Position numbers and translations under genes: made by a program | NCBI GenBank assembly: GCA_963700055.1 | Contig: CAVOWH010000001.1 | Span: 2,199 to 66,198, forward strand | Origin: an uncultured delta proteobacterium | GTDB taxonomy: Bacteria; Desulfobacterota; Desulfobacteria; Desulfobacterales; SpSt-501 | Direction of reading: 5' to 3' | Length of the DNA stretch: 64,000 nt | In this document: piece by piece, positions 11,745 to 54,338 of the stretch | How the letters are laid out: each line of letters starts with the position of its first letter | Position numbering within the stretch: the first letter of the stretch is position 1 | The notes under the pieces: model-generated | The model's input: only the letters and a program-made list of their open reading frames with translations | Told to the model about the DNA's origin: nothing | The model's database searches: none

Positions 11745-11865
11745 GATAGGTTTTCCTCCTCGACTGAAAGGTTTTTCTGGCTTTCGATGGAATTTTAAAC
11801 CATCGACGGCTCTTTGGCAAATCAAACGTCGTGAAAAATCCGGATCGCTGTAGCTGAACGGCGGC

Positions 11866-12441: not shown

Positions 12442-12466
12442 TTTGCCCCCCTCTCTTTGAAACCTG

Positions 12467-30349: not shown

Positions 30350-30470
30350 GTGATTTGTCGGATGGTATTTAGAGCATCCAACAACTTAAAATTATTGCAG
30401 ATTTATTCCGTATATCTCATGCTTACTTCTGATGCACTGTCCATGTCAAATCCAAACTAAATGTGCAATC
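30350..30470. repeat. Conserved intergenic motif, copy 1
   Basis: GTGATTTGTCGGATGGTATTTAGAGCATCCAACAACTTAAAATTATTGCAGATTTATTCCGTATATC...GTCCATGTCAAATCCAAACTAAAT. See copies at 52579 and 54207. Confidence 0.7.
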
Positions 30471-33273: not shown

Positions 33274-33715
33274 CTATACCTCCAATAAAAATTTGCGGTT
33301 GCAGTATCTGGTGCAAGAAAACTAATCGGAACCTCAGGCTATTCCGGCTAAAATTCAACAAAGGTAGACATTAACTTCGCTCCCTGAATTGTTAATGTTC
33401 GATAGGGGTGTGCAACGGGGTAAATTTGAGCAAATTCCAAGGTTGTTTGATTATGAGTTTCGTGCATTTATCGCACCCTGACTCTAGGCAGAAGGGGATT
33501 GGGATTAACAGATCAAAGGTATCGTTTCAGGGAATTGCAGATTTGTTTCGGCTTCGGAGGATTCGGAGGGCTATAGTCTCCTGGGATTGGCTTAAACTAT
33601 CTCAGAAATGGTCGTTCGGAGTAACGTCGGATGATATAGAGAGTATCCAACCAATTGAGATCATAACAGATTAGCCCTTCATATCCAATGACCGAGAGAA
33701 AGGCGGGTCATCTGG

Positions 33716-33786
33716 CTTGCAGGGGTAATGGGGACGTTCCTCAGTTTTCCGTTTTGTCAAAAAATCCGAGAAACCAAGGAACGTCC
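33716..33786. repeat. 71-bp hairpin repeat, copy A
   Basis: TAATGGGGACGTTCCT-34 nt-AGGAACGTCCCCAACAACCC with a 12-bp perfect stem. Near-identical to 36710..36780. Confidence 0.85.
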
Positions 33787-33827
33787 CCAACAACCCGCGC
33801 TTTTGAATCACAGCTACTCGGTCCTGT

Positions 33828-36709: not shown

Positions 36710-36800
36710 TAATGGGGACGTTCCTCAGTTTTGCGTTTTATCAAAAAATCCGAGAAACCAAGGAACGTCCCCAACAACCCAAGGAACGTCCCCAACAACC
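36710..36800. repeat. Hairpin repeat copy B plus a 20-bp tandem duplication of its 3' arm
   Basis: 36710..36780 matches 33716..33786. AAGGAACGTCCCCAACAACC occurs twice in tandem (36761..36780 and 36781..36800). Confidence 0.85.
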
Positions 36801-37172: not shown

Positions 37173-38648
37173 TCAGGGACTACGCATTATGTTTTTTAGC
37201 TCCACAGAGTAGATGTAATCTTTTTTGAGAGAAAGGCAATTTAGGCTATCAGATGAGTCAAAAGCAACCTTCCCAAGAATCGGAAATATCAAACCTAACT
37301 GGCCATCATACTGTTTTATTTCTTTATCATCAACGACCACGAACCAATTATTATCAACCATCGCCGTATAAGCTATGCGCTTGCTGTCTGGGCTGAAAGC
37401 AGGCGGTCCCGTGTTATCGTATTGCTTTCCTTCTTTCCCATCGACGACTATAAACGCCTTATTACCCGCTTTAGCTGAATACATCAAACGGCTGCCATCC
37501 GGGCTGAAAATAGGTAAACCGATGAGGTCGTATTTTTTCTCATCTTTTCCATCAATGACAATAAAATATTTGTTGCCTGTTTTAGCACAAAACGCCAAGC
37601 TCCTGCTGTCTGGGCTAAAAACTAAAGAGCCTTTCGCAATAGCATCGTATTTCTTTCCCTCTTTTCCAACAACGACTACAACCAACTTATTACCCACCTT
37701 AGCCAGGTATGCTAATCGTTGGCTATCCGGGCTAAAAACAGGAGTTACATCACCAGCGAGACCGTATTTTTTTCCCTCTTTTTCATCAACGACAACAATC
37801 ACTTTGTCATCCACTCCAGTAAAATATGCTATACGCTTGCTATCCGGGCTAAAAACTAAAGAGCCTTCCGCAATGATATTATATTTTTTTCCCTCTTTTT
37901 CATCAACGACTACAAACCACTTATTGTCTGCTTTAGCTCGATAAGCCATACGCATGCCGTCGGGACTGAAAATAGGAGATTCGATTGCATCGTATTTTTT
38001 TCCCTCTTTTTCATCAACGACTACGAACCATTTATTATCTTTTTTAGCAATATACGCCATACGCTTTCCGTCAGGACTGAAAATAGGAGATTCGATCGCA
38101 TCGTATTTCTTTCCCTCTTTTTCATCAACGACTACGAACCATTTATTATCTTTTTTAGCAATATACGCCATACGCTTTCCGTCAGGACTGAAAATAGGAT
38201 TGCCCGTCAAATCGTAGTGCTCTCCCTCTTTTTCATCAACGATTACAAAATACTTTTTTATTTTAATTCGCCTTTCTTCTGAAGCTTTGTTTTTTGATGC
38301 ACTAACACTTCCAGGGTCTATCTGATGAATTTCAACTTCAGCTGTTGAAGCTACGTAGGCAATGCGTTTGCTGTCAGGACTGAAAACCAAGGTATGGTCC
38401 CAAATGAAATCATATTCTTTTTCTTTTTTTTCATTAACAACTACAAATTGCTTTTTTTCATTATAACTCATATAGGCAATGCGCTTTTTGTCTTGGCTTA
38501 GCCTGATAGACCTTGATGATAACGGGGTAATTAATTGAGTAAAAGCCCTCTCGGAACCATCCCAATTAGCGGGAGGCTCATCAGCAAAGGCTAAAATTGA
38601 AAGAAAAAGAAAGCCCAAAATCCCTGAGGTTGAAAATTTCTTAATCAT
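37173..38648 (-). CDS. Secreted PD40/TolB-like beta-propeller repeat protein (about 11 repeats of about 37 aa)
   Basis: Signal peptide MIKKFSTSGILGFLFLSILAFA; repeated FSPDGKRMAYIAKKDNKWFVVVDEKEGKKYD units; AT-rich. Confidence 0.8.
   Translation of the reverse strand: MIKKFSTSGILGFLFLSILAFADEPPANWDGSERAFTQLITPLSSRSIRLSQDKKRIAYMSYNEKKQFVVVNEKKEKEYDFIWDHTLVFSPDSKRIAYVASTAEVEIHQIDPGSVSASKNKASEERRIKIKKYFVIVDEKEGEHYDLTGNPIFSPDGKRMAYIAKKDNKWFVVVDEKEGKKYDAIESPIFSPDGKRMAYIAKKDNKWFVVVDEKEGKKYDAIESPIFSPDGMRMAYRAKADNKWFVVVDEKEGKKYNIIAEGSLVFSPDSKRIAYFTGVDDKVIVVVDEKEGKKYGLAGDVTPVFSPDSQRLAYLAKVGNKLVVVVVGKEGKKYDAIAKGSLVFSPDSRSLAFCAKTGNKYFIVIDGKDEKKYDLIGLPIFSPDGSRLMYSAKAGNKAFIVVDGKEGKQYDNTGPPAFSPDSKRIAYTAMVDNNWFVVVDDKEIKQYDGQLGLIFPILGKVAFDSSDSLNCLSLKKDYIYSVELKNIMRSP
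37944..38165. repeat. Two near-identical 111-bp tandem units inside the propeller gene
   Basis: 37944..38054 and 38055..38165 differ at only a handful of positions. Confidence 0.85.
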
Positions 38649-38883
38649 TTCACCAAATCCTTGTTGAGTCGTTTTAAATGAATTTCTTATCAATTTTGGG
38701 CTTGGTCGTCAATAGTGGACACCCTTGGCTGTGATGAGACCAGCCCCTTCTCGGCCAGGTAAGCTGTGTGAATCGGCATGCAATAATGACCCACCTTTAA
38801 GGCGAAACGGCATCCAAAATTGACCCACCCCCCTGTGGCTCTCTACACTGCCAGCAATCGGGCAGAAGGAGGGCTGAGGGGAG

Positions 38884-39297
38884 ATGCTTATCGTGGAGAC
38901 CATTCGCAAGATCCGCTTATCGATTCACCGGGACGGCAAGTCGATTCGACAAACAGCCAAAGAGCTTCGCATTTCCCGCAACACCGTGCGCAAGGTCGTA
39001 CGCAGTGAGCAGACGGCATTTACCTATCGACGCAGCTCTCAGCCCCGGCCAGTCTTGGGGGCATTTGTAGAGCGTTTAGATGAGGCCTTGGCTGAGGACA
39101 AGAAGCTTGCCAAACGGCAACGTCGAACCGGCATCATGCTTTTTGAGCAGCTGCAGACTGAGGGCTACGCGGGCAGCTATGACAGCGTTCGGCGGCATGT
39201 CCGGCAGTGGCGCAGGCGGCAGAGCAACTTGGCCTCTGAGGTCTTTATCCCGCTGGTGTTTGATCCTGGTGTTAGCGGCGGCATGAAAATGCATTAA
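38884..39297 (+). pseudogene. istA: Outer IS21 IstA, N-terminal HTH fragment
   Basis: MLIVETIRKIRLSIHRDGKSIRQTAKELRISRNTVRKV... Similarity stops at FIPLVFDPG (about 39270). Confidence 0.8.
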
Positions 39298-39392
39298 AAT
39301 CGCCGGTCTAAAATTGCGCCGTTTTTTTAATGGAGCGATAGATGTGCCGGGGGTCTTGTTGGGTGCCCCCAGCACAAGGAGGTAGGTGGTCG

Positions 39393-40139
39393 TCACGGCT
39401 CGATGCTGTCCTTCATGCGATAGCTTTTTCCCTCGACGATGACAGTTTCCGCGTGATGCAGCAGGCGATCGAGGATAGCGGAAGTGAGGGTGCTGTCGTT
39501 GTTGAAGATTTCCGGCCAATCCTTGAAGGCCCGGTTGGAGGTGATCACCAAGGCGCCCTGCTCATAGCGCTGGCTGATGACTTGGAAGAGCAGATCGGCG
39601 CCGGTCTTGTCGATGGGCAGGAAGCCGAGTTCATCGAGGATCAAGACCGCGGGGCGGGTGTATTTTTTAAGCTCGGCTTTCATGCGGCCGGCGGCTTGGG
39701 CCGCGGTGAGGGTGTTGATGACATCGATGGCGGTGGCAAACAGAACGCAGTAACCCTCCAGGCAGGCCTGGTATCCGAGGGCGGCGGCCAGATGGGTTTT
39801 TCCCAGCCCGACACCGCCCAGGAAGATGACGTTGGCCTTATCGGCTACAAACTGCAGGCGGAAGAGGTTTTTGACCTGCAGGCGGTTTACTTTTTTGGGC
39901 CAGCTCCAGTTGAACTGATCGAGAGTCTTGATCACCGGGAAGCGGGCCTGTTGAATGCGGCGTTGGATGGAGCGATCGCGGCGGAAGGCGGCCTCGCCGT
40001 CGGCGAGTTTTTCGAGGTAGTCGACGTGGGCAAGCTGTTTTTCGGCGGCCTGGGTGGCAAGGCTTTGGTAGTGCTCGCGGATAAAGGGCAGCTTGAGGTA
40101 TTTGAGGTGCTCATCGAGTCGGGGGTTATCCTTCGTCAT
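39393..40139 (-). CDS. istB: IS21 helper ATPase IstB (inner copy)
   Basis: Walker A FLGGVGLGKTHLAAAL, Walker B LILDELGF. Confidence 0.9.
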   Translation of the reverse strand: MTKDNPRLDEHLKYLKLPFIREHYQSLATQAAEKQLAHVDYLEKLADGEAAFRRDRSIQRRIQQARFPVIKTLDQFNWSWPKKVNRLQVKNLFRLQFVADKANVIFLGGVGLGKTHLAAALGYQACLEGYCVLFATAIDVINTLTAAQAAGRMKAELKKYTRPAVLILDELGFLPIDKTGADLLFQVISQRYEQGALVITSNRAFKDWPEIFNNDSTLTSAILDRLLHHAETVIVEGKSYRMKDSIEP

Positions 40140-41602
40140 CGCTCATCCTTTCGTAGACGGACAGATCCGGGTGTTCCAGGCGGATATCGAGCAGGTCTTC
40201 GCGCCGGGTGAGGTGAAGCGCTGCGGGCTCTTTGTGGAAGCGAGCGCGCTGTTGAAGCAGATTGGCGATGTACTCGCAGGAGAAGGCTTCAAAGACGAAG
40301 GCATCCTCGATGGCGCGTGCGACGGGCTCATGTCCGTAGATTTCACTTAAGGCGACGATCTTGCGCACGTGCTCCTGGGGGTTCAGGCGGCGCTCTTGCA
40401 GCTTGCGGTAATAAAGGTCGGCCTTGGGCGAAAGGGATAGAAAGCGCATGAAGATTTTCTGGTCGAGGGCCTTTTTGCGTTGGGAGAGAAGCGCCTTGGG
40501 GTGGTCGGGGTCCTCGAAGTCCTGGTAGCGCTCATAGCTGCGGATATGCCGTGCGATCAGGTTGTCGCCTGCGTAGATACAAATCCGCTCGGGATCGGTT
40601 TTGACCGTAAGCGCTCTTCCCGCATGTTCAGCGGGCACCGAGTAGCGGTTGGTGTCAAGGGTGATGCGGAACTGACTGGAGGCGCGCTGGGGGTTTACGG
40701 TGGCAATATCGAAGTCGTTTATCGGAAGCGGCAGCAGACAGGGCCGCTCGGCTTCGAAGAGCTCAACGGGTTTTTTGCGGGTCTCGCCGTGGATGCGCAC
40801 GTTGGCAACCGTCTCAAGCCAGTTTCTTGCGGCCGGAGCGATGGCGGCAAAATCCGGGATATCGAGTCCGGCGAGAAAGTTCTTTTTGACATAGCCGACC
40901 GCGTTTTCCACCCGGCCCTTTTCGTTGCCGCGGCCCACGTTGCAGGCGGCGATGGTAAAGCCGCAGTGGTTGGCAAAGTCGAGGTATTTGGGGTTGAACA
41001 CCGGCGGCCGGCCGAGAATACGCCTCAAGACCGCGGACTTGAGATTGTCGACCATGATTTTTTTGGGGACACAACCGAAGAAGTCAAACGCGTTTTTATG
41101 GCAGCACAGGAAGTGCTCCATGCTCTGGCTGACGGTGAACTCGCAATAGAGCATGCGGCTGTAGCAGAGCACCATCACAAAGAAGCTCAAACGCCTGCGG
41201 GTGTTGCCCACGGTAACCGAGCCGTAGGAGCCCCAGTCGACCTGGGCGCACTCGCCGGGGGCAAAGGCAAGGGTCAAGTAGGCGGGGCTCTTCGGTGGCC
41301 GGATGCTTCTCACGTAGTCTTTTACGATACTGTAGCCTCCGGCAAAGCCCTGCCCGCGGATGCGCACAAGGATCTGGGCGGCGGTAAACGTATGGGTTTG
41401 GAGCATGCGCGGCGATCTCGTTTTTGAAAGGGTCCAGCTTGCTTGATCGCAGCCGGGCTTTGCGCGGGCAGAAGCGCTCGCGGGTGAGCCACTTGGCAAC
41501 GGTGCGCGGATCCATCGCGAGTTCGCCTGCGATTTGATGGGCGTTTAAGGCTTCGTGTTCTTTGAGATGCCGGATTTTGCAAAAAAGCTCGTAGTCGATC
41601 AT
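40126..41602 (-). pseudogene. istA: IS21 transposase IstA (inner copy), one frameshift near 41415
   Basis: N-terminus MIDYELFCKIRHLKEHEALNAHQIAGELAMDPRTVAKWL (ORF 41096..41602), then the DDE core AQVDWGS...CYSRMLY...GNEKGRVENAV in ORF 40126..41499. Confidence 0.85.
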
Positions 41603-41976
41603 GCGGCGCCTCCCAGCTGTTTGAAGATTTCTTTGATCGAACAGATCCCCCCGCCGCGTTCAGAGGAAAGCAGCGACCCATCGAGCGAGAGCACCTGATA
41701 GAGGGGATTTTGGTAGGCGATCAGATCAGCGCGCAGAAGTTCCTTCCGGGCGTTATCCAGGCGATCGGCGGCCATGGTCAGGTATCTGCCGATGGAGCGC
41801 TCGGAGTAGAAGCTCAAGCCCCTGGCGTCGGCCACGGTGACCAGAAACAGATAAAGGGCTGCCGCCGCGTGGCTCAAGCGCTCGATGTGGTGCTCGCGCA
41901 CCAGGCGCTGATCGATCCAGCTGAACTGCGGGGGGATTTTTCGTAACCTCTCGGGGTCAAGCAGATGTTTTTCCAT
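41599..41976 (-). CDS. Winged-helix-like small protein whose stop overlaps the inner istA start
   Basis: MEKHLLDPERLRK...LSHAAAALYLFLVTVADARGLSFYSERSIGRYL. AAAGGAGG RBS; the stop overlaps the istA ATG (ATGA). Confidence 0.55.
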   Translation of the reverse strand: MEKHLLDPERLRKIPPQFSWIDQRLVREHHIERLSHAAAALYLFLVTVADARGLSFYSERSIGRYLTMAADRLDNARKELLRADLIAYQNPLYQVLSLDGSLLSSERGGGICSIKEIFKQLGGAA

Positions 41977-41989
41977 GGGGCGGCCTCCT

Positions 41990-42457
41990 TTATACCGGTG
42001 GGTAGAGGATATCGTTTCCCAATTGTTGCATACGGCGGGCGGCCCTGGCGATGTCATCTTGTAACGCAAAACCGGTCAGTTGGGCGATTAGCCCAACCAT
42101 AACAGCCGGTTGCATGATTAAGGCATCTTGTAACGCAGCCGTTCCGGGCTTAGCGTTATTCAGATTGTTTACAGATAGTTGCTCGATTAAGGGATCTTGT
42201 AACGCAACGGGGCTGCGTTGAGCTCTTCGCCAGTAGCCGGGGTGCGCCTTTCGCCACTGCTGGACCCGGAGCACATGCTCGGCTCCGCGAAAGTAGTCGC
42301 GGTTCTCCTCTTTTTGCAGCCACCGCTTCTGGCTTTCGGCCTTGCTATGCTTGCGGCAGGCGGGCTTTGAGCAGTACCGCTGGCGGGTGGCATTGCGGGC
42401 ATCGGGGGTGAACAACTGCTGGCAATGAGGACATTTTATTCGGGTTATCCCTGACAT
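41990..42457 (-). CDS. Zinc-ribbon protein upstream of the winged-helix ORF
   Basis: IKCPHCQQLFTPDARNATRQRYCSKPACRK (CxxC...CxxxC). Confidence 0.5.
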   Translation of the reverse strand: MSGITRIKCPHCQQLFTPDARNATRQRYCSKPACRKHSKAESQKRWLQKEENRDYFRGAEHVLRVQQWRKAHPGYWRRAQRSPVALQDPLIEQLSVNNLNNAKPGTAALQDALIMQPAVMVGLIAQLTGFALQDDIARAARRMQQLGNDILYPPV

Positions 42458-42601
42458 CGGCCGGCGATCTCCTTTGGCCGATGCTACCGGATGAATCGGT
42501 CAGGGCGGAATAAAATCTTTGGAAGAAGACGGAGGGAAGAAAACCAGAAGAAGGGGATTTAAAAAGGGCTTTGGGGAAGAAGACGGAGCAGGGAAAACGG
42601 C

Positions 42602-43417
42602 ATGTTCAAACCGCCAGGATTAAAGCATTTCTATAACACCGCTGGAAACCAGGTGGGCACCGTGCGTCGTCGTTTCTTCGTGCCCCGGCCGAAGGTCAAC
42701 GACTATGCCGAACTCAATGAGCATCTCAAAGAACGTTGTCTGCAATGGGCGAGATCTCACCCGCATCCGGATCTTGCCGGGCAGAGCGTGTGGGAGGCCT
42801 ATGAAGCCGAGCGGCCGCACTTGATCCCCTTGCCGCCTCGCTTTGACGCTTATGCGGAGCGTCCGGCCGGGGTCAGCACCAGCAGCCTGGTACGCTTCGA
42901 CGGCAACCGCTACAGCGTGAACGGTGAACATGCGGGGATCGTACACGCCGAGCGCATTGTGATGGTCTGCGAGGGTCAGGTGATCGGAGATCACCAGCGG
43001 CATTTTGGCAGAGGTAAGACGATCTTCGATCCCTGGCATTACCTGCCTGCGCTGGAGCGAAAGCCGGGCGCATTGCGCAACGGGGCTCCGTTCAAGCACT
43101 GGGATCTTCCGCAGGCCCTTGGGCGCATCGGCGAGCAGTTGCAGCGCCGCTATGCGGATTGGGACCGGCAGTATGTGGGTATCCTGCAGGCCGTTCCCCT
43201 TTACGGGCTGGATGCGGTGGATCTTGCCTGTCGCGAGGCCCTGGAGATGGGAGCCTTCAGCAAGGAGGTCGTGCTCAACCTGCTCAACCGCAGCCGGGAC
43301 GATGCGGCAGCCGCGTCGATCGAGCCTGCAGAGCACCTGCGTCTCAAGCAGCCGCCGGTTGCCGATTGCCAGCGCTACGACCGCTTGCGGAAGGAGGTGG
43401 CCTATGCTGCGCCATGA
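42602..43417 (+). pseudogene. istA: Outer IS21 IstA, C-terminal fragment
   Basis: Resumes at GNQVGTVRRRFFVPRPKVNDYAELNEHL and runs to the C-terminus. About 170 codons (the DDE core) are missing between the two halves. Confidence 0.8.
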
Positions 43418-44135
43418 GGTGCTTGGTCTGATGGAAGCCCTCAAGCTCCGAGGCATGCAGGCGGTCTACGACGAAGTGCTCGCAAGCGGCCGCAAGCAAC
43501 GCGCCATTCCGGAGAAGGTAGTCCTGGAGCTGCTCAAGGCCGAGACCGCTGAACGCAAGCTACGCAGCATCCGCTATCGCCTTGGGCAGGCCCGCTTCCC
43601 CATGCTCAAGGACCTCGACAGTTTTCGGTTCGCAGACTCAGCCATCGATGAAGCCCAGATCCGCTCGTTATACGAGGGGGGCTTTCTCGAAGAACACAGC
43701 AATCTGATCTTCGTCGGCGGCACCGGTACCGGCAAGACGCATCTGGCCATCGCCATCGCGGCCAATCTCGTGCGCCAAGGATCACGAGCTCGTTTTTACA
43801 ACCTGGTGGATCTGGCCAACGATCTGGAACAGGAGAATCTAGCCGGTCGTGGGGGCAGGCTTACTGCCAGCTTGTCACGCTTCAACCTGGTGCTGCTCGA
43901 TGAGTTGGGCTACCTGCCGTTCTCCAAAAACGCCAGCCAGCTGCTCTTCCACCTGATCTCCAAGCTCTACGAGCAGACCTCAGTGATCATCACCACCAAT
44001 CTCGCCTTCGGGGAATGGCCCCAGGTCTTCGGCGACAAGAAAATGACCACCGCCATGCTCGACCGCATCACGCATCATTGCGAAATCATCGAAACCGGCA
44101 ACGACTCCTGGAGAATGAAACACAGATCCTCCTGA
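43404..44135 (+). CDS. istB: IS21 helper ATPase IstB (outer copy)
   Basis: [18 protein letters not shown]...[16 protein letters not shown]...VLLDELGY; overlaps the istA end. Confidence 0.9.
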
Positions 44136-44351
44136 AACGATTGCCCAGGACGGATCTCAACTGAAAACTTCTATGCGCGGGGGTGGGTCAAAATTGGATG
44201 CCGATAGTGGGTCAACTTTCGATGCCGATTGACAGTTACTATGCGGCAAGATCTGGATGGATTATCACCGGTCCCATTCAAAAAAAACACCTTGCGATAC
44301 TTTGAAAGACTGACGTCTTTACGGATCGGTTCAGCCATAAACGAATGTTAT

Positions 44352-46889
44352 TCAGTTATTTGCAAGCATCTTCATCAGATTGGGCATGCCGTGTCCCTGG
44401 ATGTACACATCACGGTTGAGATCGGTGCAGTTGTCCAGAAGGATCCTTTTTACCCGGTTTGGATAGCCGATGAATTCACGTCTCACGGAAAGGAATGCGG
44501 CCAACAGTCCCGACACATGTGGAGCTGCCATACTTGTACCACTCATCTCAATATACAGGTCATTAAGGGTCCTCTGATCTTCCGGCTTGTTTTTGTCATA
44601 GGCGTGGTAAGCGGACAGAACCTGCTCGCCCGGGGCTACAAGATCGGGCTTTTTTCGTCCGTCAGCCGTAGGTCCTCTCGAAGAGAAGTAAGAAACCCCG
44701 TATGTATGCGGATTAGACTTATGTATTGACCCTACGGCTATTGCCTCTTCGAGATTAGCCGGATCTCCGATTGAGAGGTCCATATTGGACGGAACTTGTC
44801 CTCCCAGAGCTTGAAGGACAGCGTATCCTTCATTGCCTGCCGCCAGACAAACCAGAACCCCCTGACCCCACAATCGACGCAACTCCTGGCATACTGGAGT
44901 ATGACCGCAGCCATACACGCTTGAATCAAATGATCCCCCAAGGCTTAGGTTCACTCCCTGGACTACCAGCTTACCCGCATTTTCATTGAGATCGGCAATG
45001 CAAGTGAGGGCTTTGATAACGTATGAGTCCTGACCATTGCCCTGATCATCGAGTACTTTTAATCCATATAGTTTTGTTTCTGGAGCCATTCCGCTAAAGA
45101 TGTCATCGGGTGCTCCGGATTTGTCCATAGACTTGTGCCATCCGGCAATGATTCCCGCCACATGTGTACCGTGCCCGTTTTTGTCTGCCGTTTTACTCTC
45201 ATCCTCATTTATTTCCTCTGGCTCTCCACGCTTCGTACAGTCCCACTGGCGTGCGACGTTTCTGTGCTTCTTGAAATGGGGGTGATCCGCACAGATTCCT
45301 GTATCGAGTATTGCCCACACAATGTCCCTGCCCAAGGCTTCATAGCTCAAATTTGCCGGACGAGCCTGAACGGTGATAGTAGATCGATTTATCAATGCCT
45401 TCTTTGATGCATCCCGCCACACCTTCTCGATCATCAAGTCTTTGTATCGGGTACGCAGCCGCTCGATTTCGAGTCGTGTGAGCTTTGCCGACATCCACCT
45501 TCTGAGTGGATCAATTGCGGCATCCTCCACACTGTCGCCGCTCTGAGTGACCATCTCCTCGATTGTCTCTCTCAGTTTGGCGCCAACATCGGAGAGATTT
45601 TCCTGATCGAGTGGCCCTCTACCGGCATGGGTCGTCAGTTGAATCAATACCGTGTGCCGTTCCTTTCGAAAGCTATCCTCCAGCCCTTCGACCAGATCCT
45701 TCACGATAATGGATTTGGCCACCGCTTGAGAGAATCCATTGCCCGCCGTTTCACGCACCGCGGTGCGGACCGGGATGCTGCGAAGATAGCCCGTAGCTGA
45801 ATGAGGGTGTAGCGGCGCATCAGGATTCAAGAGAAGCTCGCTGTAATTCTCAATTCTTTCTTTTGGAGAGAAATCGTTTCCTACATCATGATCGGCCGCC
45901 ACGGGGTCGAGCCACTCAGATACATTGATCCACCTCGAAACGCAGGCAGGCACACTGAGAACTCCATCGGGTGCCCAGCCCCGAAAAATGTCCTTCACTT
46001 GCGGGAGCCCAAGAGGCGAACCGATTGTCAGGAAGAGCCGCACATCACATTCAGCTTGGGAAAGCTGACGCAGAACGTTGTATGCGATCATCGATCCCTG
46101 GCTGTGGGCTATCACAATAAACGGCCCGCCACCAGCATTGAGACGATCCACCAAGCTCTGCTCCATGGCCTGTCTTCTATCGGGATGGAAAAAGAAGTCG
46201 TTCAAATCCCTGAGAAACGCACGGGTGAGCTTTTGTGTGACAAGTCGCATGAGAAAGGAGTCCAGAGGCACAAATCTGATGCGTGCGTTAGCAGCCTTTA
46301 GGACCCGATCATCTATGTTACTTTCCTTGAGCAATCCCCGTCTGGTCATGTCCTCAGCCATCTTACGCAGCCAAACACGCTGGGCTTCGTTTCTGGTAAG
46401 GGCTTTTATTTCCGACTCAATTGCCTTCCGCTCGTCTGTGGGCTTCTTTGAAGCAAGGGCTATTGTGGATTTGGGCGTTACCTCATCGTCATCTATTTTA
46501 ATCGTGTCTTCGTGGGCGCACGTTTCATTGGACGGGACAGGATAATATTCTCTATTGACCCAGTAAGCCATGCGGCTGCGGTCGCCAAGTTGCACTCCAA
46601 ACAATGCGGAATCCCACTGGCACTTCAGGACAGATGCAGGTGGTTTATTTCCGATACCGTGGACATATATGATGGTTTCAATTTGAGAAGGTGCACCTCG
46701 AGCAACCGTGAGCGGTGCTCTTTCTTTTGGTCTTGGTGGGCTAATTGAAATAGGCCCGGGTGGTTCAATCTTCAAAGCCGTCTTGAATGATGAAGCCCTC
46801 TTGCCTGCAACGGATGCACTTTCTGCGGCGCTCCTGTCGGTTGGTTCCGTCTGCTTCTGCTTCCTCGGAGGCTTCGTTCGCTTAGCCAT
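44352..46889 (-). CDS. Fusion protein: basic disordered N-terminus, alpha/beta-hydrolase-like domain, C-terminal subtilisin-like S8 peptidase; no signal peptide
   Basis: IIYVHGIGNKPP and FIVIAHSQGSMIAYN (nucleophile elbow). S8 triad contexts WAILDTGICADHPHF, NGHGTHVAGIIAG, MSGTSMAAPHVSGLLAAF. GAGGAG RBS. Confidence 0.85.
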   Translation of the reverse strand: MAKRTKPPRKQKQTEPTDRSAAESASVAGKRASSFKTALKIEPPGPISISPPRPKERAPLTVARGAPSQIETIIYVHGIGNKPPASVLKCQWDSALFGVQLGDRSRMAYWVNREYYPVPSNETCAHEDTIKIDDDEVTPKSTIALASKKPTDERKAIESEIKALTRNEAQRVWLRKMAEDMTRRGLLKESNIDDRVLKAANARIRFVPLDSFLMRLVTQKLTRAFLRDLNDFFFHPDRRQAMEQSLVDRLNAGGGPFIVIAHSQGSMIAYNVLRQLSQAECDVRLFLTIGSPLGLPQVKDIFRGWAPDGVLSVPACVSRWINVSEWLDPVAADHDVGNDFSPKERIENYSELLLNPDAPLHPHSATGYLRSIPVRTAVRETAGNGFSQAVAKSIIVKDLVEGLEDSFRKERHTVLIQLTTHAGRGPLDQENLSDVGAKLRETIEEMVTQSGDSVEDAAIDPLRRWMSAKLTRLEIERLRTRYKDLMIEKVWRDASKKALINRSTITVQARPANLSYEALGRDIVWAILDTGICADHPHFKKHRNVARQWDCTKRGEPEEINEDESKTADKNGHGTHVAGIIAGWHKSMDKSGAPDDIFSGMAPETKLYGLKVLDDQGNGQDSYVIKALTCIADLNENAGKLVVQGVNLSLGGSFDSSVYGCGHTPVCQELRRLWGQGVLVCLAAGNEGYAVLQALGGQVPSNMDLSIGDPANLEEAIAVGSIHKSNPHTYGVSYFSSRGPTADGRKKPDLVAPGEQVLSAYHAYDKNKPEDQRTLNDLYIEMSGTSMAAPHVSGLLAAFLSVRREFIGYPNRVKRILLDNCTDLNRDVYIQGHGMPNLMKMLANN

Positions 46890-47147
46890 TAGAGTGCTCC
46901 TCGGTAATTGAATTTACAGAAGATGCTCATCCTCTTTCGAGTGCGCATGCTGTTTGATAAATCAGAACTCTCTCCAACAGGAGCTTCGCAAGTTGACTCA
47001 TTCCGTCTTCCCGCCAAAAGCAGGCAGATATGACGGAAGAATGAATTCTGTGGGCAATGTGATTGGCAATGGGCTGTTCTTCCATCCTGGATCGCTACCA
47101 ATCCGCCCAGTGCTTTGGAAATTTGGCTCTCCAGACAGCTACTGGCT

Positions 47148-47942
47148 CTATCCTCGGCTAATAGCCTCCCTTGCCCAATCACCCAGCACGGAGAGTCGAG
47201 CATAGAGGCCGGGCAACTCTGGTCTCGCACAGCCAATGCCCCAACTAGTAGCTCCGACGAGGATCTTTTGACCTTTCTGCACAGCTATTAAAGGTCCCCC
47301 AGAGTCTCCCTGACATGCGTCTTTTCCACCCTCTGGGTAGCCTGCTGAAAGCATGTTTTCAGTCACTACGGCCCCATGTCGACCATATGCTTCTTTAGCC
47401 TGGTTATATGAGACAACAGGCACTTCCACATGCCTCAAAATTTTAGTCCCCGGACCACCTTCGAAGGTAGCCCCCCATCCTATGGCTATTACTTGCCTTT
47501 CAGGGTCAGTCAGTCCTTCCGGATCACCGCTTGAGATGATTGATACCGGCTGTTTTTGGGAAGCTTTTGAAAGACGCAAAAGTGCAAGATCGCAGTCGGA
47601 GGTGTTAGGGTCATATTGAGGATGGATTATGATTTCCGCCACAGCAATTCGCTCTTCCGGTGTTTCGCGGCGGAAATCGATTATCCCTAGAACAACATCA
47701 AAATCATCCGGATCATTCCCATAGGGGCAGTGAGCTGCGGTCAGGACCCAGTTTGGGGCAATGAGAGCGCCACCACAAAACTGGCCTCTATCCGCACTGA
47801 CACCGTGAGCTACAAGTGCTGTCATCCATGGATATGCGTTTCTATCCTTTACTTCGTCTCCACCTACGATCTTGGGGCGATAAATGGTTTGTCTCCCAAA
47901 ATTAAGTGGGCTGGTTTGGGGCAATTGATTCAAAGCTTTCAT
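47148..47942 (-). CDS. Trypsin-like S1 serine peptidase with a 24-aa pro-segment and no signal peptide
   Basis: MKALNQLPQTSPLNFGRQTIYRPK-IVGGDEV; CGGALIAPNWVLTAAHC (His), DCDLALLRL (Asp), KDACQGDSGGPL (Ser; Asp at the S1 specificity position). Confidence 0.9.
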   Translation of the reverse strand: MKALNQLPQTSPLNFGRQTIYRPKIVGGDEVKDRNAYPWMTALVAHGVSADRGQFCGGALIAPNWVLTAAHCPYGNDPDDFDVVLGIIDFRRETPEERIAVAEIIIHPQYDPNTSDCDLALLRLSKASQKQPVSIISSGDPEGLTDPERQVIAIGWGATFEGGPGTKILRHVEVPVVSYNQAKEAYGRHGAVVTENMLSAGYPEGGKDACQGDSGGPLIAVQKGQKILVGATSWGIGCARPELPGLYARLSVLGDWAREAISRG

Positions 47943-48214
47943 GATTCCTCCTTTCGATTTGACAGAGTCACTTGGTTGTCTTTAATCACATAGATCATCT
48001 GGTGCAGTCCGAAGTCCTCGGTTCTCCGATCAATCACATTGAACCGGACCTTGCCCCTGAACGAGATGACCTCCCTGCCGCCAACACTTTCTTTTTGCGA
48101 AACAGGAGGGAAGATTATCGTGCTGCGTAAGCTGAACCTGTCGCCGTACTTCTCGCGAAGGTAATTAGTAATCAGCTCTTTATAGTTTTCAGGAAATCCA
48201 GCAGAGTTCGTCAT
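47939..48214 (-). CDS. Small (91 aa) protein of unknown function whose stop overlaps the S1 peptidase start
   Basis: ATG at 48214 (an alternative TTG lies at 48226). Its TGA overlaps the peptidase ATG (ATGA at 47939..47942). Confidence 0.6.
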   Translation of the reverse strand: MTNSAGFPENYKELITNYLREKYGDRFSLRSTIIFPPVSQKESVGGREVISFRGKVRFNVIDRRTEDFGLHQMIYVIKDNQVTLSNRKEES

Positions 48215-48307
48215 GATCTCAACCAAAGCCAGGTAAAGGTACTGCCTTGACTTGTACTTAAACTCTTTTCAAATCGTAAAGAATCTGCATCCCTAGGTTG
48301 CGAAATC

Positions 48308-49324
48308 TTAACTTATTCTCCCGATGCTGCTGAGATTATCGCACTTGTATAGGTCGCCTGGTGTAACGAAATCGGCGACCGTCCTCAGGAGGTGGTCCAA
48401 GACCGACGGGATATCCTTTTCGAGCGATCGGGGCGCCCTAGCTGTATTTCCAACCGCGGTAACAGCATAAAAAGATTTGCTGAATTCATATATGCTTTGA
48501 AGCAGTTGGGGACTTCTGAGAGAAGCCTCCAGTTCCAGGGAACGTGTCTTTGGCTTTTTAACTTCTTTAAGGTAGTTGCTGGCAAGATCATCGATCGACA
48601 TCTTAGCCATCCGCTTCTCTTCGGCAGAAAGCGCTCTTTGGCTTCTTTTCCCCGATGACTGGGACAAAAAATCGGACAAAAAGGACCGGGAGCCGGCAAC
48701 ATTACCGGCCCAAACAAGGAGGCTGTCACGATGAATGTTACTGGACGCTGGAGCTTTTTTTGAACCTCTGACTCCTTGAATAGCGTCTCTCATTAAACCC
48801 GGGAAAGGAGCGATATCAAGGCAGTAAGGATCATGAGCCACAGGCAGAGCTTCGTCATAACACCGGTATACGAATTCGGAACAGATCATCGGTTGCCGAT
48901 CACCCTGCTTCATGAGTATGTCGGCAGCCTGGTCGAATATTTTCCGAAGCAGCCAGGAAAGGTAATTATTAACTTGTAGCTTTCGAGTGAGACCGAGTAT
49001 CGCCAGCAGCACGAGTTGCTCATACCCATAACGGTTCCCAATCTGAAGATACCAATTTGCCTTATCCACCACAGGCTGCATCGTTCCTGGATCTGTTTTC
49101 ATTCGTCGAACGATGGCGTATTCAGCATCGTGAATGCTGCCCCTAATGGTATTGCACTTTATACCCGCACCCACTGCTTCGACAACCTTCCCATCTCCTA
49201 TACAGACCGAAGCATGGTTTACTTCGGTTCCGTCAAAAAATTGGATTAAGTTGGCCAACAAACTGTTGCTGTGATATAGAATAATGTCTCCTGCTGAAAT
49301 TTCCTGCATTCCCATCGTATTCAT
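48308..49324 (-). CDS. Permuted papain-fold (YiiX/C92-like, NlpC/P60 superfamily) enzyme with a C-terminal extension of about 170 aa
   Basis: GDIILYHSNSLLANLIQFFDGTEVNHASVCIG...VVEAVGAG...AIVRR...PMICSEFVYRCY (His before Cys gives the permuted order). GGAGGG RBS. Confidence 0.65.
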   Translation of the reverse strand: MNTMGMQEISAGDIILYHSNSLLANLIQFFDGTEVNHASVCIGDGKVVEAVGAGIKCNTIRGSIHDAEYAIVRRMKTDPGTMQPVVDKANWYLQIGNRYGYEQLVLLAILGLTRKLQVNNYLSWLLRKIFDQAADILMKQGDRQPMICSEFVYRCYDEALPVAHDPYCLDIAPFPGLMRDAIQGVRGSKKAPASSNIHRDSLLVWAGNVAGSRSFLSDFLSQSSGKRSQRALSAEEKRMAKMSIDDLASNYLKEVKKPKTRSLELEASLRSPQLLQSIYEFSKSFYAVTAVGNTARAPRSLEKDIPSVLDHLLRTVADFVTPGDLYKCDNLSSIGRIS

Positions 49325-49405
49325 ACGCCCTCCTTTGTTGGTCTATAGAAAAATAAATTCATAACCGGCTGCCATGGACGGTGATACTTTTCGTCAACCT
49401 CGCGT

Positions 49406-49445
49406 CTTCAAAAACCTGATACGGTGTGAGTTGCTGTCACTGTAT
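49406..49445 (-). terminator. Possible intrinsic terminator between the TIR-TPR gene and the C92 gene
   Basis: Minus strand GATACAGTG-acagcaactca-CACCGTATC (one mismatch) followed by AGGTTTTTG. Confidence 0.35.
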
Positions 49446-49506
49446 CGTGGCTTTTATCGAGGTCGAATTTACGGCGATATTTTCAACATCCGCGTTCACA
49501 CAGTTT

Positions 49507-51177
49507 TTAGTGACTTTTATTTATTGTTGTCATTTTTCTCAAACAGCCTGGCTTAAGATGCTTTGTGCGTTGTCTCTCATTCAGTTGGAGGAGCCGCTGA
49601 ATCCAAGAAGTAGAAATTGCTGCTTCGAGTCCCAATGGCTGACGTCGGGTTGTCTTCCTTGATTGGTCTTTAAATAAATATTTGTAGTCTGGCCAAGAAC
49701 CAATAATGTTGTCTCTTTCTGCTTGGATGCGCTCCTCCTCAGCGGCTTCTCGCTTTCCCAGAATAAAAAACGCGAGCCCTCGGTAGTATCGGTCCTGCGC
49801 CGTGTTTGGTTTAAGATCGCGGCATCGTTTTGCATATAAAACCGCTTCATCCATGTCCCCTATGCAGTACTTGATTGAGGCGAGCTCGGCGAGATCTTGA
49901 ATAGATTCCGGCTCAAGATCTACTGCTTTCTTGAGAAAAGTCATAGCTTTCTCATAGTCGCGAAAGTGAAGTGCAAACTCCGCAAGTTTTCGACAGAAGG
50001 CAGCGTCCTTCTCGCAGGCCGAAATATTCCGGAAAAGCACCCTCAATGCGTCGTGAACCCGTCCTAATGCAAGATAGCAGTCCGCAAGATCGCATACGTA
50101 TGACAGAGGCTGGGTCTGTTCGTTGAGGTACGGCCACACAGCCTGCTCAAAGTAACCGACGGCATCATAGGGCCGCTTCTGGGCAAATAAGATCTTTCCT
50201 CGCAACGCCAAGATATTCGGCTCGCGGCTTTCCTTTTCAGAAAGAGCGTCAAGTTCCACCCATGCCTGTTCCGGTTTACCCAATGCAAGTAGTACTCGCC
50301 CAATGTTGTGAATGACATCGACGATGTGCGAAGAACGTTGAAGCTCACTACCCTCATTCAAGAGTCGCTTGCACCGCTCATAAGCGGCCAATGCTTTCGT
50401 GCACTCACCCAAATGGAACAGAGCACCACCTAAACCATGCCATGCCCGGGGATCTTCCGGATTCATCTCAACCAAGCTCCCAAATGTTTTCGCAGCGGCC
50501 TCATGACGGCCCATTTCCGCCTGGAGCACGCCCAGTGCGAAATAGGGAGAAATCACGTCCGTGGCATCCAGGCACTCCAATTTGTCTATTAGTACCCAGA
50601 TATACTTCTCCGCAACCTCTTTGTGAGTTTGGTATTTCCTCCGAAATTCCGCGTAAAAATCGACAAGCCATTTGATTTCGTGCTTCGGGATCTTGCTGGC
50701 GAACAATTCCTTCTTAAAATCCTGGTCGCGAGGGACTCGAAAGTCGGGGCAGTAGGTGATTTCAAGGTAATGACAAAGCTCCTGAATACCGGTATCGTAA
50801 TCTGTCAGGTCTATGTATGAAAGTCGGTTTTGCCCCTCAAACAGTTCAGTCTTTCTCCAATCATCGATGGCTGGTTCTACAATGCAAATGACCAAGTCCG
50901 GCAGTCCATCAATCGCCTGTCGTTCGCGCATGATTTGACACTCTTTCATAACGTACTGCGACCTTCTTGCAGCCTTGCTGTCGAGAAGGCAAAACCAACG
51001 CGAATCTCGTATTCTCTCCTCGAACTCTCGCTGGAAATCCACACCAATCTGGCGGTCGGCCTCATAGCGCCAAACACGTAGGCCCGAGCGTCGCAGGTCC
51101 TCGCTGATGCGCATTGCCACAACCCCGTCGGAGCTCGCGTAGCTCACAAACACATCGTGCGAAGCAACACTTTTCAT
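49507..51177 (-). CDS. TIR-domain protein with a C-terminal TPR array
   Basis: HDVFVSYASSDG...GLRVWRYEADRQIGVDF...IRDSRWFCLLDSKAARRSQYVMKECQ (TIR betaA, and a Glu at the position of the NADase catalytic residue), followed by about 10 TPR-like repeats. Start taken at MKSVASHD, 8 nt after the upstream stop. Confidence 0.8.
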   Translation of the reverse strand: MKSVASHDVFVSYASSDGVVAMRISEDLRRSGLRVWRYEADRQIGVDFQREFEERIRDSRWFCLLDSKAARRSQYVMKECQIMRERQAIDGLPDLVICIVEPAIDDWRKTELFEGQNRLSYIDLTDYDTGIQELCHYLEITYCPDFRVPRDQDFKKELFASKIPKHEIKWLVDFYAEFRRKYQTHKEVAEKYIWVLIDKLECLDATDVISPYFALGVLQAEMGRHEAAAKTFGSLVEMNPEDPRAWHGLGGALFHLGECTKALAAYERCKRLLNEGSELQRSSHIVDVIHNIGRVLLALGKPEQAWVELDALSEKESREPNILALRGKILFAQKRPYDAVGYFEQAVWPYLNEQTQPLSYVCDLADCYLALGRVHDALRVLFRNISACEKDAAFCRKLAEFALHFRDYEKAMTFLKKAVDLEPESIQDLAELASIKYCIGDMDEAVLYAKRCRDLKPNTAQDRYYRGLAFFILGKREAAEEERIQAERDNIIGSWPDYKYLFKDQSRKTTRRQPLGLEAAISTSWIQRLLQLNERQRTKHLKPGCLRKMTTINKSH

Positions 51178-51185
51178 GTCACCAC

Positions 51186-52313
51186 TCAATGCTTCCTGCT
51201 CCAAGAAGTCGGCGTGACTATATGCGGTAAGGGCCGGATTGCGTTCACCTCTTGCAGGAATGTGGCCCATGCTCTCTGATTGGTCTTCTTCACATACCTG
51301 AAAAACGCCGCATATTTCATCGTGGACTTAGCGGCATCGTATACTTGCGGATTAAGCTTTCGCATATCGCCGCTGATCGACTTGACCCCTGCAGTTAAGT
51401 TCTTGACCTCAGTAACCTTCGGTTCTAAGGAGTTGATCTGCATCGCCACCCTGTTATATTCCTTCATATTTCCGGCCACCCTCAGAGCGTTCGCCTGCTC
51501 CACCAGAGTGCTCCAGGTGCGTTTGTAACCATCGAAATCGGAGGTCCAGAAATAGTAGTAGGGTTCCCCAGCAATATGCAGTCTTCCCTCCTCATGTGTT
51601 GTAAATATTATTGTAGCCTCTTGGTCCGTGAGTACCCACGATTGGAAGGAGACATTTCTCAGAACTGACATGACCTTGTTCGCGCTATCCCGAGCCAGTC
51701 CGGTGGGCTCGGATTCGCCTTTGCCGAGCACCACCTTCCCTTCAAAGGCTGGAAGACGCCACATGTTGGCAATGTCGAAGAGGAGGATGTCGGCCTGTAA
51801 AAGGCGGAGGCCCAGAAGCGTGTTCTGAAAGGCTGGGTGATACACAATGTCGTAAAATGTATCATTCGTACGCTCCCCGAAAAGCGATACACATGCGTTA
51901 TAGTCAGAGTCCGCGTATTTCGAGATCGGCACGAGCAGCCAGTCGGGAAGGGCCTGCGTGTACACCGAGTCTCCTATTCGTACGCTTAGACGGTTCCCGT
52001 CGGCTTTGCCGCTGTCATAGGCAAGGCTGACGGACTTCGAATCAAGCAGTCTGCCGGGCGACGCCATTCCACCGAATGCGACGCCGCCGACCTTGCCGAC
52101 GAACCCGTACGATCCCAGGCTGCCGGATCCCATCTTGGAAAGGAGAGGCCCGCTTGGCGAGCCGTTGACAAATTGGTATGGTCCAAGGTCCCAGGTGCTG
52201 CCTTGCGCCAACGCGATGGCTCCAACCAGCACCACGACGATAGAAACCGAGAGTCCTCGCAACCAATGGCAAGCACGATTTCGGCATGTAGCAGCTTCAT
52301 ATGGCGTCGGCAT
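51186..52313 (-). CDS. Membrane-anchored protein of unknown function, first gene of the island
   Basis: One N-terminal TM (LSVSIVVVLVGAIALA) and a large extracytoplasmic part. The ATG at 52313 is preceded by GGAGGA; the ORF track starts 12 nt upstream. Confidence 0.6.
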   Translation of the reverse strand: MPTPYEAATCRNRACHWLRGLSVSIVVVLVGAIALAQGSTWDLGPYQFVNGSPSGPLLSKMGSGSLGSYGFVGKVGGVAFGGMASPGRLLDSKSVSLAYDSGKADGNRLSVRIGDSVYTQALPDWLLVPISKYADSDYNACVSLFGERTNDTFYDIVYHPAFQNTLLGLRLLQADILLFDIANMWRLPAFEGKVVLGKGESEPTGLARDSANKVMSVLRNVSFQSWVLTDQEATIIFTTHEEGRLHIAGEPYYYFWTSDFDGYKRTWSTLVEQANALRVAGNMKEYNRVAMQINSLEPKVTEVKNLTAGVKSISGDMRKLNPQVYDAAKSTMKYAAFFRYVKKTNQRAWATFLQEVNAIRPLPHIVTPTSWSRKH

Positions 52314-52578
52314 GTCGTCCTCCATTTGACGCTGACAAGAGTTATCGTTTGTTGCCGTGCCCTCTTCACTGCATCATGCTACTGGACGACCAGAAACTCT
52401 ACTCTCTTTTCCCGCGAACAAATAGCGCTTTGTCCCTTATCCCTTAGGATGAAAGTCTAAAGAGGCATGTGATACGGTTGAGCATTGGTGTAGCAAAGAG
52501 ACTTAAGGGATGATGGATAAAATGTTGTTGAACCGATCCGAGTTCCATCTATTGAAGTATCACGGATTTGCCGATCCG

Positions 52579-52640
52579 GTGATTTGTCGGATGATATTTA
52601 GGATACTCAACAATCTAAAACCACAACACATATTTTCCGC
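52579..52640. repeat. Conserved intergenic motif, copy 2 (shorter)
   Basis: GTGATTTGTCGGATGATATTTAGGATACTCAACAATCTAAAA..., about 265 nt upstream of the island's first gene. Confidence 0.6.
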
Positions 52641-52678
52641 CTACCTCACGCCTTTATAAAGTCGATATGTTGCCCCGG

Positions 52679-53125
52679 CTATCTTCTCCGAGGGCGAGGC
52701 TGTATTCTTCCCGGACGGTCCCCCACTTTGCCCGGTTCATTATTGTCGAGCCGTTCATCTCTTCTTTCATACTGTCTTAGCGTCCGTCTGTAAGGGTCAC
52801 CGGCGTAATCGTACTCGATATTATCGCCCGCATCCTCGGAGGCAATGGCGGTGCTGACGCTACTCCCGGGTTGCTCGCCCCCTTGATTCGGATTTCCCTG
52901 CTGCTGATTCGGCCGATCGCTCGCTGTCGATTGACGGACGGGCCGGTTTGGTTGTGGTGAATAATCAATAGTGTCAACAGCCTTGGCCGTGTCTGGTGGC
53001 GGGTCTTGGGTGATATGGGTCACCCCTTTGGCATCCGTCCACGTGAAAAGACGGTCTGCGTAACCGTTCAGCACCCAACAAAGCCAAAGCACCAAAATTA
53101 TGAGTACCGTTTTGAATAGTTTCAT
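52679..53125 (-). CDS. DUF4124-domain protein
   Basis: Signal/TM segment then LFTWTDAKGVTHITQDPPP; low-complexity C-terminus. Confidence 0.65.
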   Translation of the reverse strand: MKLFKTVLIILVLWLCWVLNGYADRLFTWTDAKGVTHITQDPPPDTAKAVDTIDYSPQPNRPVRQSTASDRPNQQQGNPNQGGEQPGSSVSTAIASEDAGDNIEYDYAGDPYRRTLRQYERRDERLDNNEPGKVGDRPGRIQPRPRRR

Positions 53126-54131: not shown

Positions 54132-54206
54132 GCCGGACAAAATTGGATTCGCACAAGAAGAAGTATCTCGCTTTTATGTCTGAGCGAAACGCAATCACAA
54201 AACTGG

Positions 54207-54338
54207 TGATCTGTTGATACGTCGGATGGTATTTGGACTATTCAACGGCAGAAAATCATTGCAGATTAATTCTGCATATCCTTTTTTTACCCCCGTCGGC
54301 CCGTCTATGTCAAACCCAAACTGAATTTATGGTCAATT
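54207..54338. repeat. Conserved intergenic motif, copy 3
   Basis: GTGATCTG..TCGGATGGTATTTGGACTATTCAACGGCAGAAAATCATTGCAGATTAATTCTGCATATC...GTCTATGTCAAACCCAAACTGAAT, 76 nt upstream of ldh. Confidence 0.7.

Follow-up and report, generated by a model that had tools for sequence, protein, structure and literature searches.

The stretch analyzed here, referred to as the window, comprises 64,000 nucleotides (nt) of contig CAVOWH010000001.1 from an uncultured delta proteobacterium (assembly GCA_963700055.1). It contains a block of six co-directional open reading frames (ORFs) on the minus strand. Beginning with the first gene, the block encodes an exported protein of 375 amino acids (aa, 51186-52313), a TIR-TPR protein of 556 aa (49507-51177), a C92-like protein of 338 aa (48308-49324), a putative small ORF of 91 aa (47939-48214), an S1 peptidase of 264 aa (47148-47942), and an 845-aa fusion of an alpha/beta-hydrolase with an S8 peptidase (44352-46889). 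An initial annotation had proposed the six genes as one candidate system, in which a TIR domain acts with a cascade of proteases. Its gene coordinates were confirmed, and its domain calls were reproduced by Pfam searches, which gave TIR_2 (6.7e-17) with TPR families, Peptidase_C92 (7e-9), Trypsin (7e-56), Peptidase_S8 (1e-48, residues 520-834) and a weak Abhydrolase_6 match (residues 241-336); neither the first protein nor the small ORF was assigned to a family. The catalytic motifs are visible in the translations: the S8 Asp/His/Ser and S1 His/Asp/Ser residues, an AHSQG nucleophile elbow, and His37 and Cys148 of the C92-like protein. As claimed, none of the five downstream proteins carries a signal peptide. 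The description of the genes as tightly packed applies to two junctions, the 8-nt gap between the stop of the first gene and the TIR-TPR ATG at 51177, and the ATGA overlap of the small ORF TGA with the S1 ATG. The other gaps measure 182, 81-93 and 258 nt. The evidence below points to a different organization: the block is probably a variable accessory island of at least three independently inherited modules, with one undescribed two-gene conflict or abortive-infection module and cargo that is not coupled to it.

The exported-protein gene and the TIR-TPR gene form the sole multi-gene unit of the block that is conserved elsewhere. Thirty-one loci from contigs of one genome per species were combined with contexts from assemblies, and 29 distinct loci had enough flanking sequence to be evaluated. 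The TIR-TPR gene adjoins the exported-protein gene in 18 of these 29 loci, covering at least 8 phyla. In 17 of those 18 it is the next gene downstream, co-directional and often overlapping by 4-13 nt, and in locus L028 it lies upstream. Two small ORFs separate the genes in L020. In L010, from a Bacteroidetes metagenome-assembled genome (MAG), the whole pair is tandemly duplicated (6917-12585) and is followed by a TIR-WD40 gene. The intervening ORFs in L020, together with the loci in which the TIR-TPR gene is missing, would fit a chance or lineage-restricted adjacency of two independent genes. We regard this as hardly credible, however, because gene order and strand are kept in 17 loci at only 24-43% protein identity, and because Acidobacteriota, Nitrospirota-like, Bacteroidota, Desulfobacterota, Cyanobacteria-related and Proteobacteria MAGs all show the arrangement. 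In several loci the stop codon of one gene overlaps the start codon of the next, and the duplication in L010 took in both genes.

The remaining genes of the block behaved differently. In a co-occurrence test set in advance, the six window proteins were searched by tblastn against 34 distinct loci encoding the exported protein, with a reach of 10 kb. The TIR-TPR protein was found repeatedly, whereas homologues of the S8 fusion, the S1 peptidase, the C92-like protein and the small ORF occurred in none of the 34 loci. In the opposite direction, five contexts of the S8 fusion and three of the C92-like protein had none of the other block genes beside them. Close relatives divide the block in the same manner. 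Loci L043 and L044 share window positions 49486-52368 at 87% nt identity and contain the pair, then an intergenic segment of about 115 nt that we call X (49380-49494 in the window, minus strand), then a dispersed repeat that we call D5; they have no C92 gene. Locus L039 shares just 48299-49494 at 90% nt identity, with segment X and the C92 gene alone, placed between TerC and DUF5658 genes. Locus L038 shares 44244-47699 at 97% nt identity, with the S1 and S8 genes followed by D5, and its homology stops exactly at the right end of the IS21-family element adjoining the block, 108 nt beyond the S8 stop. Segment X is thus common to pair-only and C92-only relatives, preceding D5 in the former and lying upstream of C92 in the latter, and it marks the junction of the pair module and the C92 module. 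Since relatives split the block at these seams, the arrangement in the window is a juxtaposition of modules. The pair comes first and C92 second, and the small ORF, S1 and S8 make up the last part, which IS21 cuts short.

The co-occurrence test therefore came out against the proposal of the initial annotation that sensing by the TPR array switches on the TIR domain and/or a zymogen cascade of the S1, S8 and C92 enzymes, leading to abortive infection. That proposal draws on real features. The six genes are adjacent and co-directional, and five products lack signal peptides; the S1 peptidase has a zymogen-like extension and trypsin-type specificity, so that activation by cleavage is conceivable. 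Other lineages have caspase and CHAT peptidases beside the pair, the defense-system library PADLOC has a model that fits the S8 fusion, and the S8 peptidase IetS belongs to a known defense system. Against these stand the 0/34 count, the separation of the pair, C92 and S1 with S8 in close relatives with homology ending at the module borders, the unrelated contexts in which the S8 fusion and C92 occur elsewhere, and the gaps of 182 and 258 nt between the modules. We consider a six-gene system very improbable. The association of peptidases with the TIR protein holds as a class, as caspases and CHAT proteins that are not homologous to the window enzymes recur beside the pair, but it does not hold for S1, S8 or C92. 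Likewise, the conflict or defense reading is retained for the TIR-TPR protein, which sits in a conserved unit with its upstream gene and outside the libraries searched, and the S1, S8 and C92 enzymes would have no part in it. Adjacent TIR and peptidase genes in a low-GC island can mimic one system and yet be independently inherited cargo.

The island lies between host lipid-metabolism genes and a nested IS21-family element. The GC content is 0.45-0.53 over 44-52 kb compared with 0.60-0.69 at 55-64 kb, where the flank encodes an AMP-ligase and 3-beta-HSD-type, KAS-III-like and FabA-like proteins. The block is low in GC, as the initial annotation had noted in calling it foreign, but the window is a mosaic elsewhere too, with GC of 0.42-0.47 at 33-39 kb. 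The block was also correctly described as abutting IS21. This element (38808-44243) has inverted repeats at 38808-38832 and 44179-44203, and tandem terminal repeats at its right end reach about 44243, so that the end lies about 108 nt beyond the S8 stop. Its IstB gene is intact at about 43.4-44.1 kb. The helix-turn-helix N-terminus of IstA is found at 38884-39297, and IstA is broken by an oppositely oriented second transposase gene of the rve/Mu-transposase-C type (40126-41499), a nested insertion. A scan for promoters and terminators gave counts not above those of shuffled sequence. The idea that the block is an integron cassette array or a cluster of attC sites lacking an integrase (CALIN) was dropped, as reading of the intergenic sequences revealed no R''/R' GTTRRRY-type attC-like sites, and no integrase adjoins the block.

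The D5 repeat is intergenic and about 75-125 nt long. Copies occur in the window at 30343-30468, 33610-33729, 52570-52699 and 54205-54329, and in relatives at 3348-3493 of L043 and 3446-3567 of L038. The copy at 52570-52699 lies directly upstream of the pair and marks a module boundary in this lineage. D5 borders variable modules in several places: upstream of the pair, upstream of ldh/mdh, after the pair in L043 and L044, and after S8 in L038. It had no Rfam match at the gathering score or at E<=1, and folding z-scores ranged from -0.6 to +0.3. D5 was accordingly rejected as an RNA and is probably a DNA-level dispersed repeat. Between two of its copies, the segment 52679-54140 on the minus strand encodes a DUF4124 signal-peptide protein and an L-lactate/malate dehydrogenase at GC 0.54-0.55, and may be another inserted module rather than core genome.

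The first gene of the pair encodes 375 aa from the ATG at 52313. A further in-frame ATG lies upstream at 52325, but this start is less likely because a GGAGGA ribosome-binding site sits just before 52313. The N-terminus has a basic stretch, a hydrophobic core and a cleavage site (GAIALA|QGSTWDLG), as in a Sec signal peptide. The initial annotation had called the protein membrane-anchored; the classical cleavable signal peptide ending in ALA|QG instead predicts that it is exported. Across the family, 123 of 131 N-complete members show a signal-peptide pattern, the conserved mature N-terminus W-D-L-G begins right after the predicted cleavage site, and one homologue ends in a type IX secretion system (T9SS) sorting domain. 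A word-indexed search returned 222 homologues, and an exhaustive profile search returned about 900 clusters at 50% identity. The protein had no match in Pfam, NCBIfam or PADLOC. An AlphaFold2 model built with 35 homologues was confident (pLDDT 93.7, pTM 0.87), but it had no Foldseek match in the PDB (best E 0.38) or in BFVD, and a profile search against PDB sequences found none either. Inspection of 10 longer family members for domain fusions gave coiled-coil noise only. Invariant polar residues include D109, R112, S147, H163, R174, D179, E204 and D234. In all loci, conservation of the exported protein exceeds that of the TIR-TPR protein beside it (53 vs 43% and 37 vs 25% in two examples). Such a pattern points to an enzyme or to a structure under tight constraint.

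The second gene encodes a cytoplasmic protein, with no signal peptide, that begins directly at TIR strand A. The TIR_2 domain is followed by TPR repeats spanning residues 210-490 approximately. A catalytic-type Glu is present at position 79 in the motif SQYVMKEC, and the family pattern is S-x-[WY]-V-x-x-E. The Glu79 column is invariant in 15 of 15 full-length homologues, none of which has a signal peptide. Alignment to the PDB sequence of AbTIR covers the first half of the domain and ends before Glu79. From its motif, we take Glu79 to be the catalytic Glu of AbTIR and SARM1, which lies in a WxxxE-type motif after strand C. The equivalence to the catalytic position is inferred from sequence, and the domain would accordingly be of the NADase type.

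The partner of the exported protein varies among loci. A TPR-containing partner is found in 23 of the 29 loci. The swap is to TPR-CHAT in L031 and to a protein with TPR repeats only in L029, and three cyanobacterial loci (L008, L009 and L027) have an EAD10-NB-ARC-TPR STAND gene in convergent orientation. The pair has caspase (C14) genes beside it in L011, L017 and L021, and L016, like L010, has a TIR-WD40 gene after the pair. To describe the surroundings, the two nearest genes on each side were collected (102 proteins), with 67 more distal proteins from the same loci as a control. The nearest neighbors included 5 TIR_2, 4 caspase, 3 NB-ARC and 2 CHAT proteins, and also 3 ThsB-type TIR, 2 PLD and 2 Shedu SduA matches. 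None of these effector matches occurred in the distal control, which gave just generic helicase-type PADLOC matches. Swapping to CHAT, caspase and STAND-type partners is a typical signature of conflict systems. These effector-rich neighborhoods of TIR, caspase, CHAT and NB-ARC proteins, together with the retained Glu, make a conflict or defense role of the pair plausible. Many hosts of the exported family are filamentous or social, including cyanobacteria, Saprospiraceae and Polyangiaceae. As a separate observation, locus L001 (1-9938) has upstream of the pair a run of very large proteins without Pfam domains and a 945-aa Tubulin_2 (PF13809) protein.

The pair was then compared with known systems, and a PADLOC scan confirmed that the gene set has no full match to a named one. 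As in Thoeris, a TIR_2 domain with a conserved catalytic-type Glu is present, and by analogy NAD+ cleavage or signal production would be expected. The Thoeris TIR scores were weak (PADLOC ThsB, 2.5e-4; NCBIfam type III ThcB4, 1e-3 and far under the cut-off), and by score the domain is TIR_2 rather than a member of the ThsB family. Unlike Thoeris, no ThsA-type effector (SIR2/SLOG, Macro or transmembrane) was matched among seven scanned proteins, the TIR domain is fused to a TPR array, and the conserved partner is exported and has no PADLOC match. The Bacillus cereus BcTir/BcTpr operon, for which anti-phage activity and NAD+ depletion have been reported (bioRxiv 10.1101/2023.05.26.542521), is by its description also a two-gene operon joining TIR chemistry and a TPR array. 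In that system, however, the TIR protein and the TPR-bearing NADase are separate and cytoplasmic, whereas here a single protein carries both TIR and TPR, and its partner gene codes for a secreted protein from a different, unannotated family. A SAVED_TIR match (3e-7) is limited to the TIR region, and no cyclase is present, unlike in CBASS/SAVED-TIR systems.

Bacterial gasdermin operons encode a bGSDM followed by a caspase, CHAT or subtilase protease with TPR, LRR or WD40 repeats (Johnson et al., bioRxiv 10.1101/2021.06.07.447441). The pair resembles them in placing a non-enzymatic-looking gene of about 300-400 aa directly before a repeat-bearing death effector. The likeness extends to TPR-CHAT and caspase partners in other lineages, to four neighbors matching the PADLOC "caspase" model, and to the match of the S8 fusion to the "subtilase" model. 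In contrast, the exported protein carries a signal peptide and resembles no PDB structure, gasdermins included, and no gene matched a bGSDM model. Kaur, Burroughs, Iyer and Aravind described conflict systems of multicellular bacteria with effector-associated domains (EADs), STAND NTPases and TPR-CHAT (PMC8195603). The loci of the exported protein share with these the TIR, caspase, CHAT, trypsin, alpha/beta-hydrolase and, in cyanobacteria, EAD10-NB-ARC-TPR proteins around it, but an NTPase, an EAD and a Death-like adaptor are all absent from the window. A term search of the paper found no comparable exported partner. The S8 domain matches IetS models (1e-12), as in IetAS, but no IetA ATPase gene is present in 44-53 kb, the NCBIfam IetS score is 29.9 against a cut-off of 900, and the fusion has an extra lipase-like N-terminal domain. 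No SMC (LmuB/LmuC) or STAND gene occurs in the block, unlike in Lamassu and AVAST. With no ThsA, gasdermin, cyclase, STAND/EAD or IetA in the locus, it therefore lies outside every named system tested.

A possible mechanism for the pair can be outlined. The fast-evolving TPR array would be the sensing or regulatory part. Once activated, the TIR domain would use Glu79 to consume NAD+ or to make an NAD-derived signal, and the outcome would be growth arrest or death. The exported partner would be functionally tied to the TPR protein in one of two ways. Either it would be the ligand that is monitored, perhaps as a precursor still awaiting export or through something that its activity in the periplasm produces, or it would be an executioner acting on the envelope. 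The second and third modules, the cytoplasmic YiiX-like C92 enzyme and the lipase-like/S8 fusion with S1 in front of it, would be solo cargo that is mechanistically uncoupled from the pair.

A broader version of this idea, which we hold tentatively and think rather doubtful, is that the exported family with cytoplasmic TPR effectors (TIR, CHAT, caspase and STAND) constitutes a new class of immune module that links the envelope or secretion to a death effector, and that the exported protein has a new fold. In one form, the TPR protein would guard export: infection that upsets Sec or the proton-motive force would make unexported precursor accumulate, and the TPR protein would sense this build-up. 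In the other, the exported protein would act in the periplasm as an executioner or a sensor, and its state would be read from the cytoplasmic side. TIR-based immunity is common to bacteria, plants and animals, and known bacterial TIR proteins are mostly paired with a cytoplasmic effector or sensor. Here the conserved TIR partner is secreted and comes from a large family lacking annotation and any match to solved or viral structures. Should the pair be an immune module, it would show how envelope or export events are coupled to NAD+-based cell death, adding a new fold to the defense repertoire.

Several points weigh against an immune module. All genes discussed here are known from sequence and computation. 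A secreted protein and a cytoplasmic effector have no obvious signaling route between them, so the mechanistic link is speculative. Neither pair member matches PADLOC beyond weak TIR domain matches. The exported family was absent from the IMG/VR and PLSDB collections, so its mobility is less obvious than that of typical defense genes. In 6 of the 29 loci the exported protein has no TPR or TIR neighbor, and some solo forms are longer; such solo occurrences argue that the family has a function of its own. The distal control also gave PADLOC matches at 1e-5 (generic helicases), which makes the enrichment of effectors qualitative. With regard to the modularity, the context samples are small (S8, n=5; C92, n=3), and since non-homologous peptidases recur beside the pair elsewhere, it may have a loose functional link to the adjacent peptidases of the window.

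Some of these points also fit a non-immune pair, in which the exported protein works as an enzyme in the envelope or outside the cell, serving housekeeping or development, and the TIR-TPR protein is a cytoplasmic chaperone, regulator or scaffold, for instance in interactions between cells or in the programmed cell death of multicellular bacteria. The TIR would then be an interaction or nucleotide-binding domain rather than an anti-phage NADase. The solo loci and the absence from phage and plasmid collections are in keeping with this, as are the enzyme-like invariant polar residues, a conservation above that of the partner, the filamentous or social hosts, and TPR modules that resemble secretion chaperones at the repeat level. 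However, invariance of the catalytic-type Glu speaks for a TIR with enzymatic activity, and swaps to CHAT, caspase and STAND-type partners are typical of conflict systems, not of chaperones (PMC8195603). The flanks of the pair also differ between close relatives, and it lies in a low-GC variable region near IS elements. A non-immune role is unlikely in our view but a serious rival, and a two-gene conflict module beside unrelated cargo is the reading we favor.

The cargo genes were characterized individually. The C92-like protein has an N-terminal permuted NlpC/P60 domain of the YiiX/YaeF type (MEROPS C92) and no signal peptide. Its N-terminal 165 residues match this family by Pfam (PF05708, 36.4 bits against a cut-off of 27), NCBIfam and Foldseek (2if6 and 3kw0, probability 1.00, N-terminal half only), and His37 and Cys148 are invariant among homologues. 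Unlike YaeF, it scores 43 bits against an equivalog cut-off of 279, and it has an additional helical C-terminal half of about 170 residues that is conserved and unmatched. Homologues number 414, and the gene is solo in three contexts (L039 at 90% identity, L040 and L048). The 91-aa ORF had no homologue in Pfam, NCBIfam, PADLOC or PLSDB.

The S1 peptidase has a 24-residue N-terminal extension ending in RPK before IVGG, a His/Asp/Ser triad, and the trypsin-type Asp in KDACQGDSGGP. Taken together with the Lys right before IVGG and the missing signal peptide, these features suggest a zymogen that stays inside the cell. Its PADLOC matches were at the domain level only, to the protease portion of LmuA (4.5e-10) and to Avs1b (1.4e-5). 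S1 adjoins S8 elsewhere solely in the 97%-identical relative L038, and an exact-sequence look-up of S1 found no record. PLSDB and IMG/VR gave nothing for C92, the small ORF or the S1 region; the plasmid matches of S1 were generic trypsins at no more than 38% identity.

The S8 fusion has at least 930 homologues; among the matches listed, these are 54-69% identical across phyla, apart from one near-identical copy at 97%. The N-terminal 420 residues are extremely conserved and include the AHSQG nucleophile elbow at about 261-265, around which there is weak similarity to LCAT/LPLA2-type phospholipase A2. The C-terminal subtilase is complete (520-834), and no signal peptide is present. The protein spans the whole PADLOC model PDLC03014 "subtilase" (1e-75). 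Since their numbers lie near each other, the PADLOC "subtilase" and "caspase" models may both be gasdermin-associated protease models; a literature search for the parent system of the "subtilase" model found nothing usable. Homologues of the fusion stand apart from the other five genes in L036, L037 and L049 (a Blastocatellia MAG and two metagenome contigs).

Homologues in the mobile-element collections have other surroundings. In the IMG/VR loci L046 (6080-10421) and L047 (5948-10301), S8-fusion homologues at 50% identity lie beside a P4-type tyrosine integrase at the very end of these predicted viral contigs, a place typical for prophage or satellite cargo. Plasmid matches cover the S8 domain only. 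On rhizobial and Burkholderia plasmids (L041, 5563-8508; L042, 5422-8592), a shorter S8 peptidase of 534-602 aa has 41% identity to the S8 domain alone; in each case the next gene encodes a hypothetical protein of about 443 aa, and the two may form another conserved two-gene S8 unit. Locus L049 also encodes, 2 kb away from its S8-fusion homologue, a signal-peptide protein of 375 aa with a caspase-TPR protein after it (10587-12962). This arrangement was rejected as a parallel case, as the 375-aa protein is not homologous to the exported family and the caspase-TPR protein has a lipoprotein-type signal (IVFGC). The two may be an entirely extracytoplasmic analogue of the layout of exported protein and TPR effector.

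Two further features lie beyond the IS21 element, as seen from the block. A gene at 37173-38693 on the minus strand, with a GC content of 39%, encodes a 506-aa PD40 (WD40-like beta-propeller) protein and is built of about 10 DNA repeats of 111-117 nt that are up to 100% identical. Direct repeats of 71 nt at 33726-33796 and 36710-36780 are 97% identical, and each contains a hairpin (GGGGACGTTCC...GGAACGTCCCC). These repeats enclose some 2.9 kb of DNA with low GC and may be the ends of another small mobile element.

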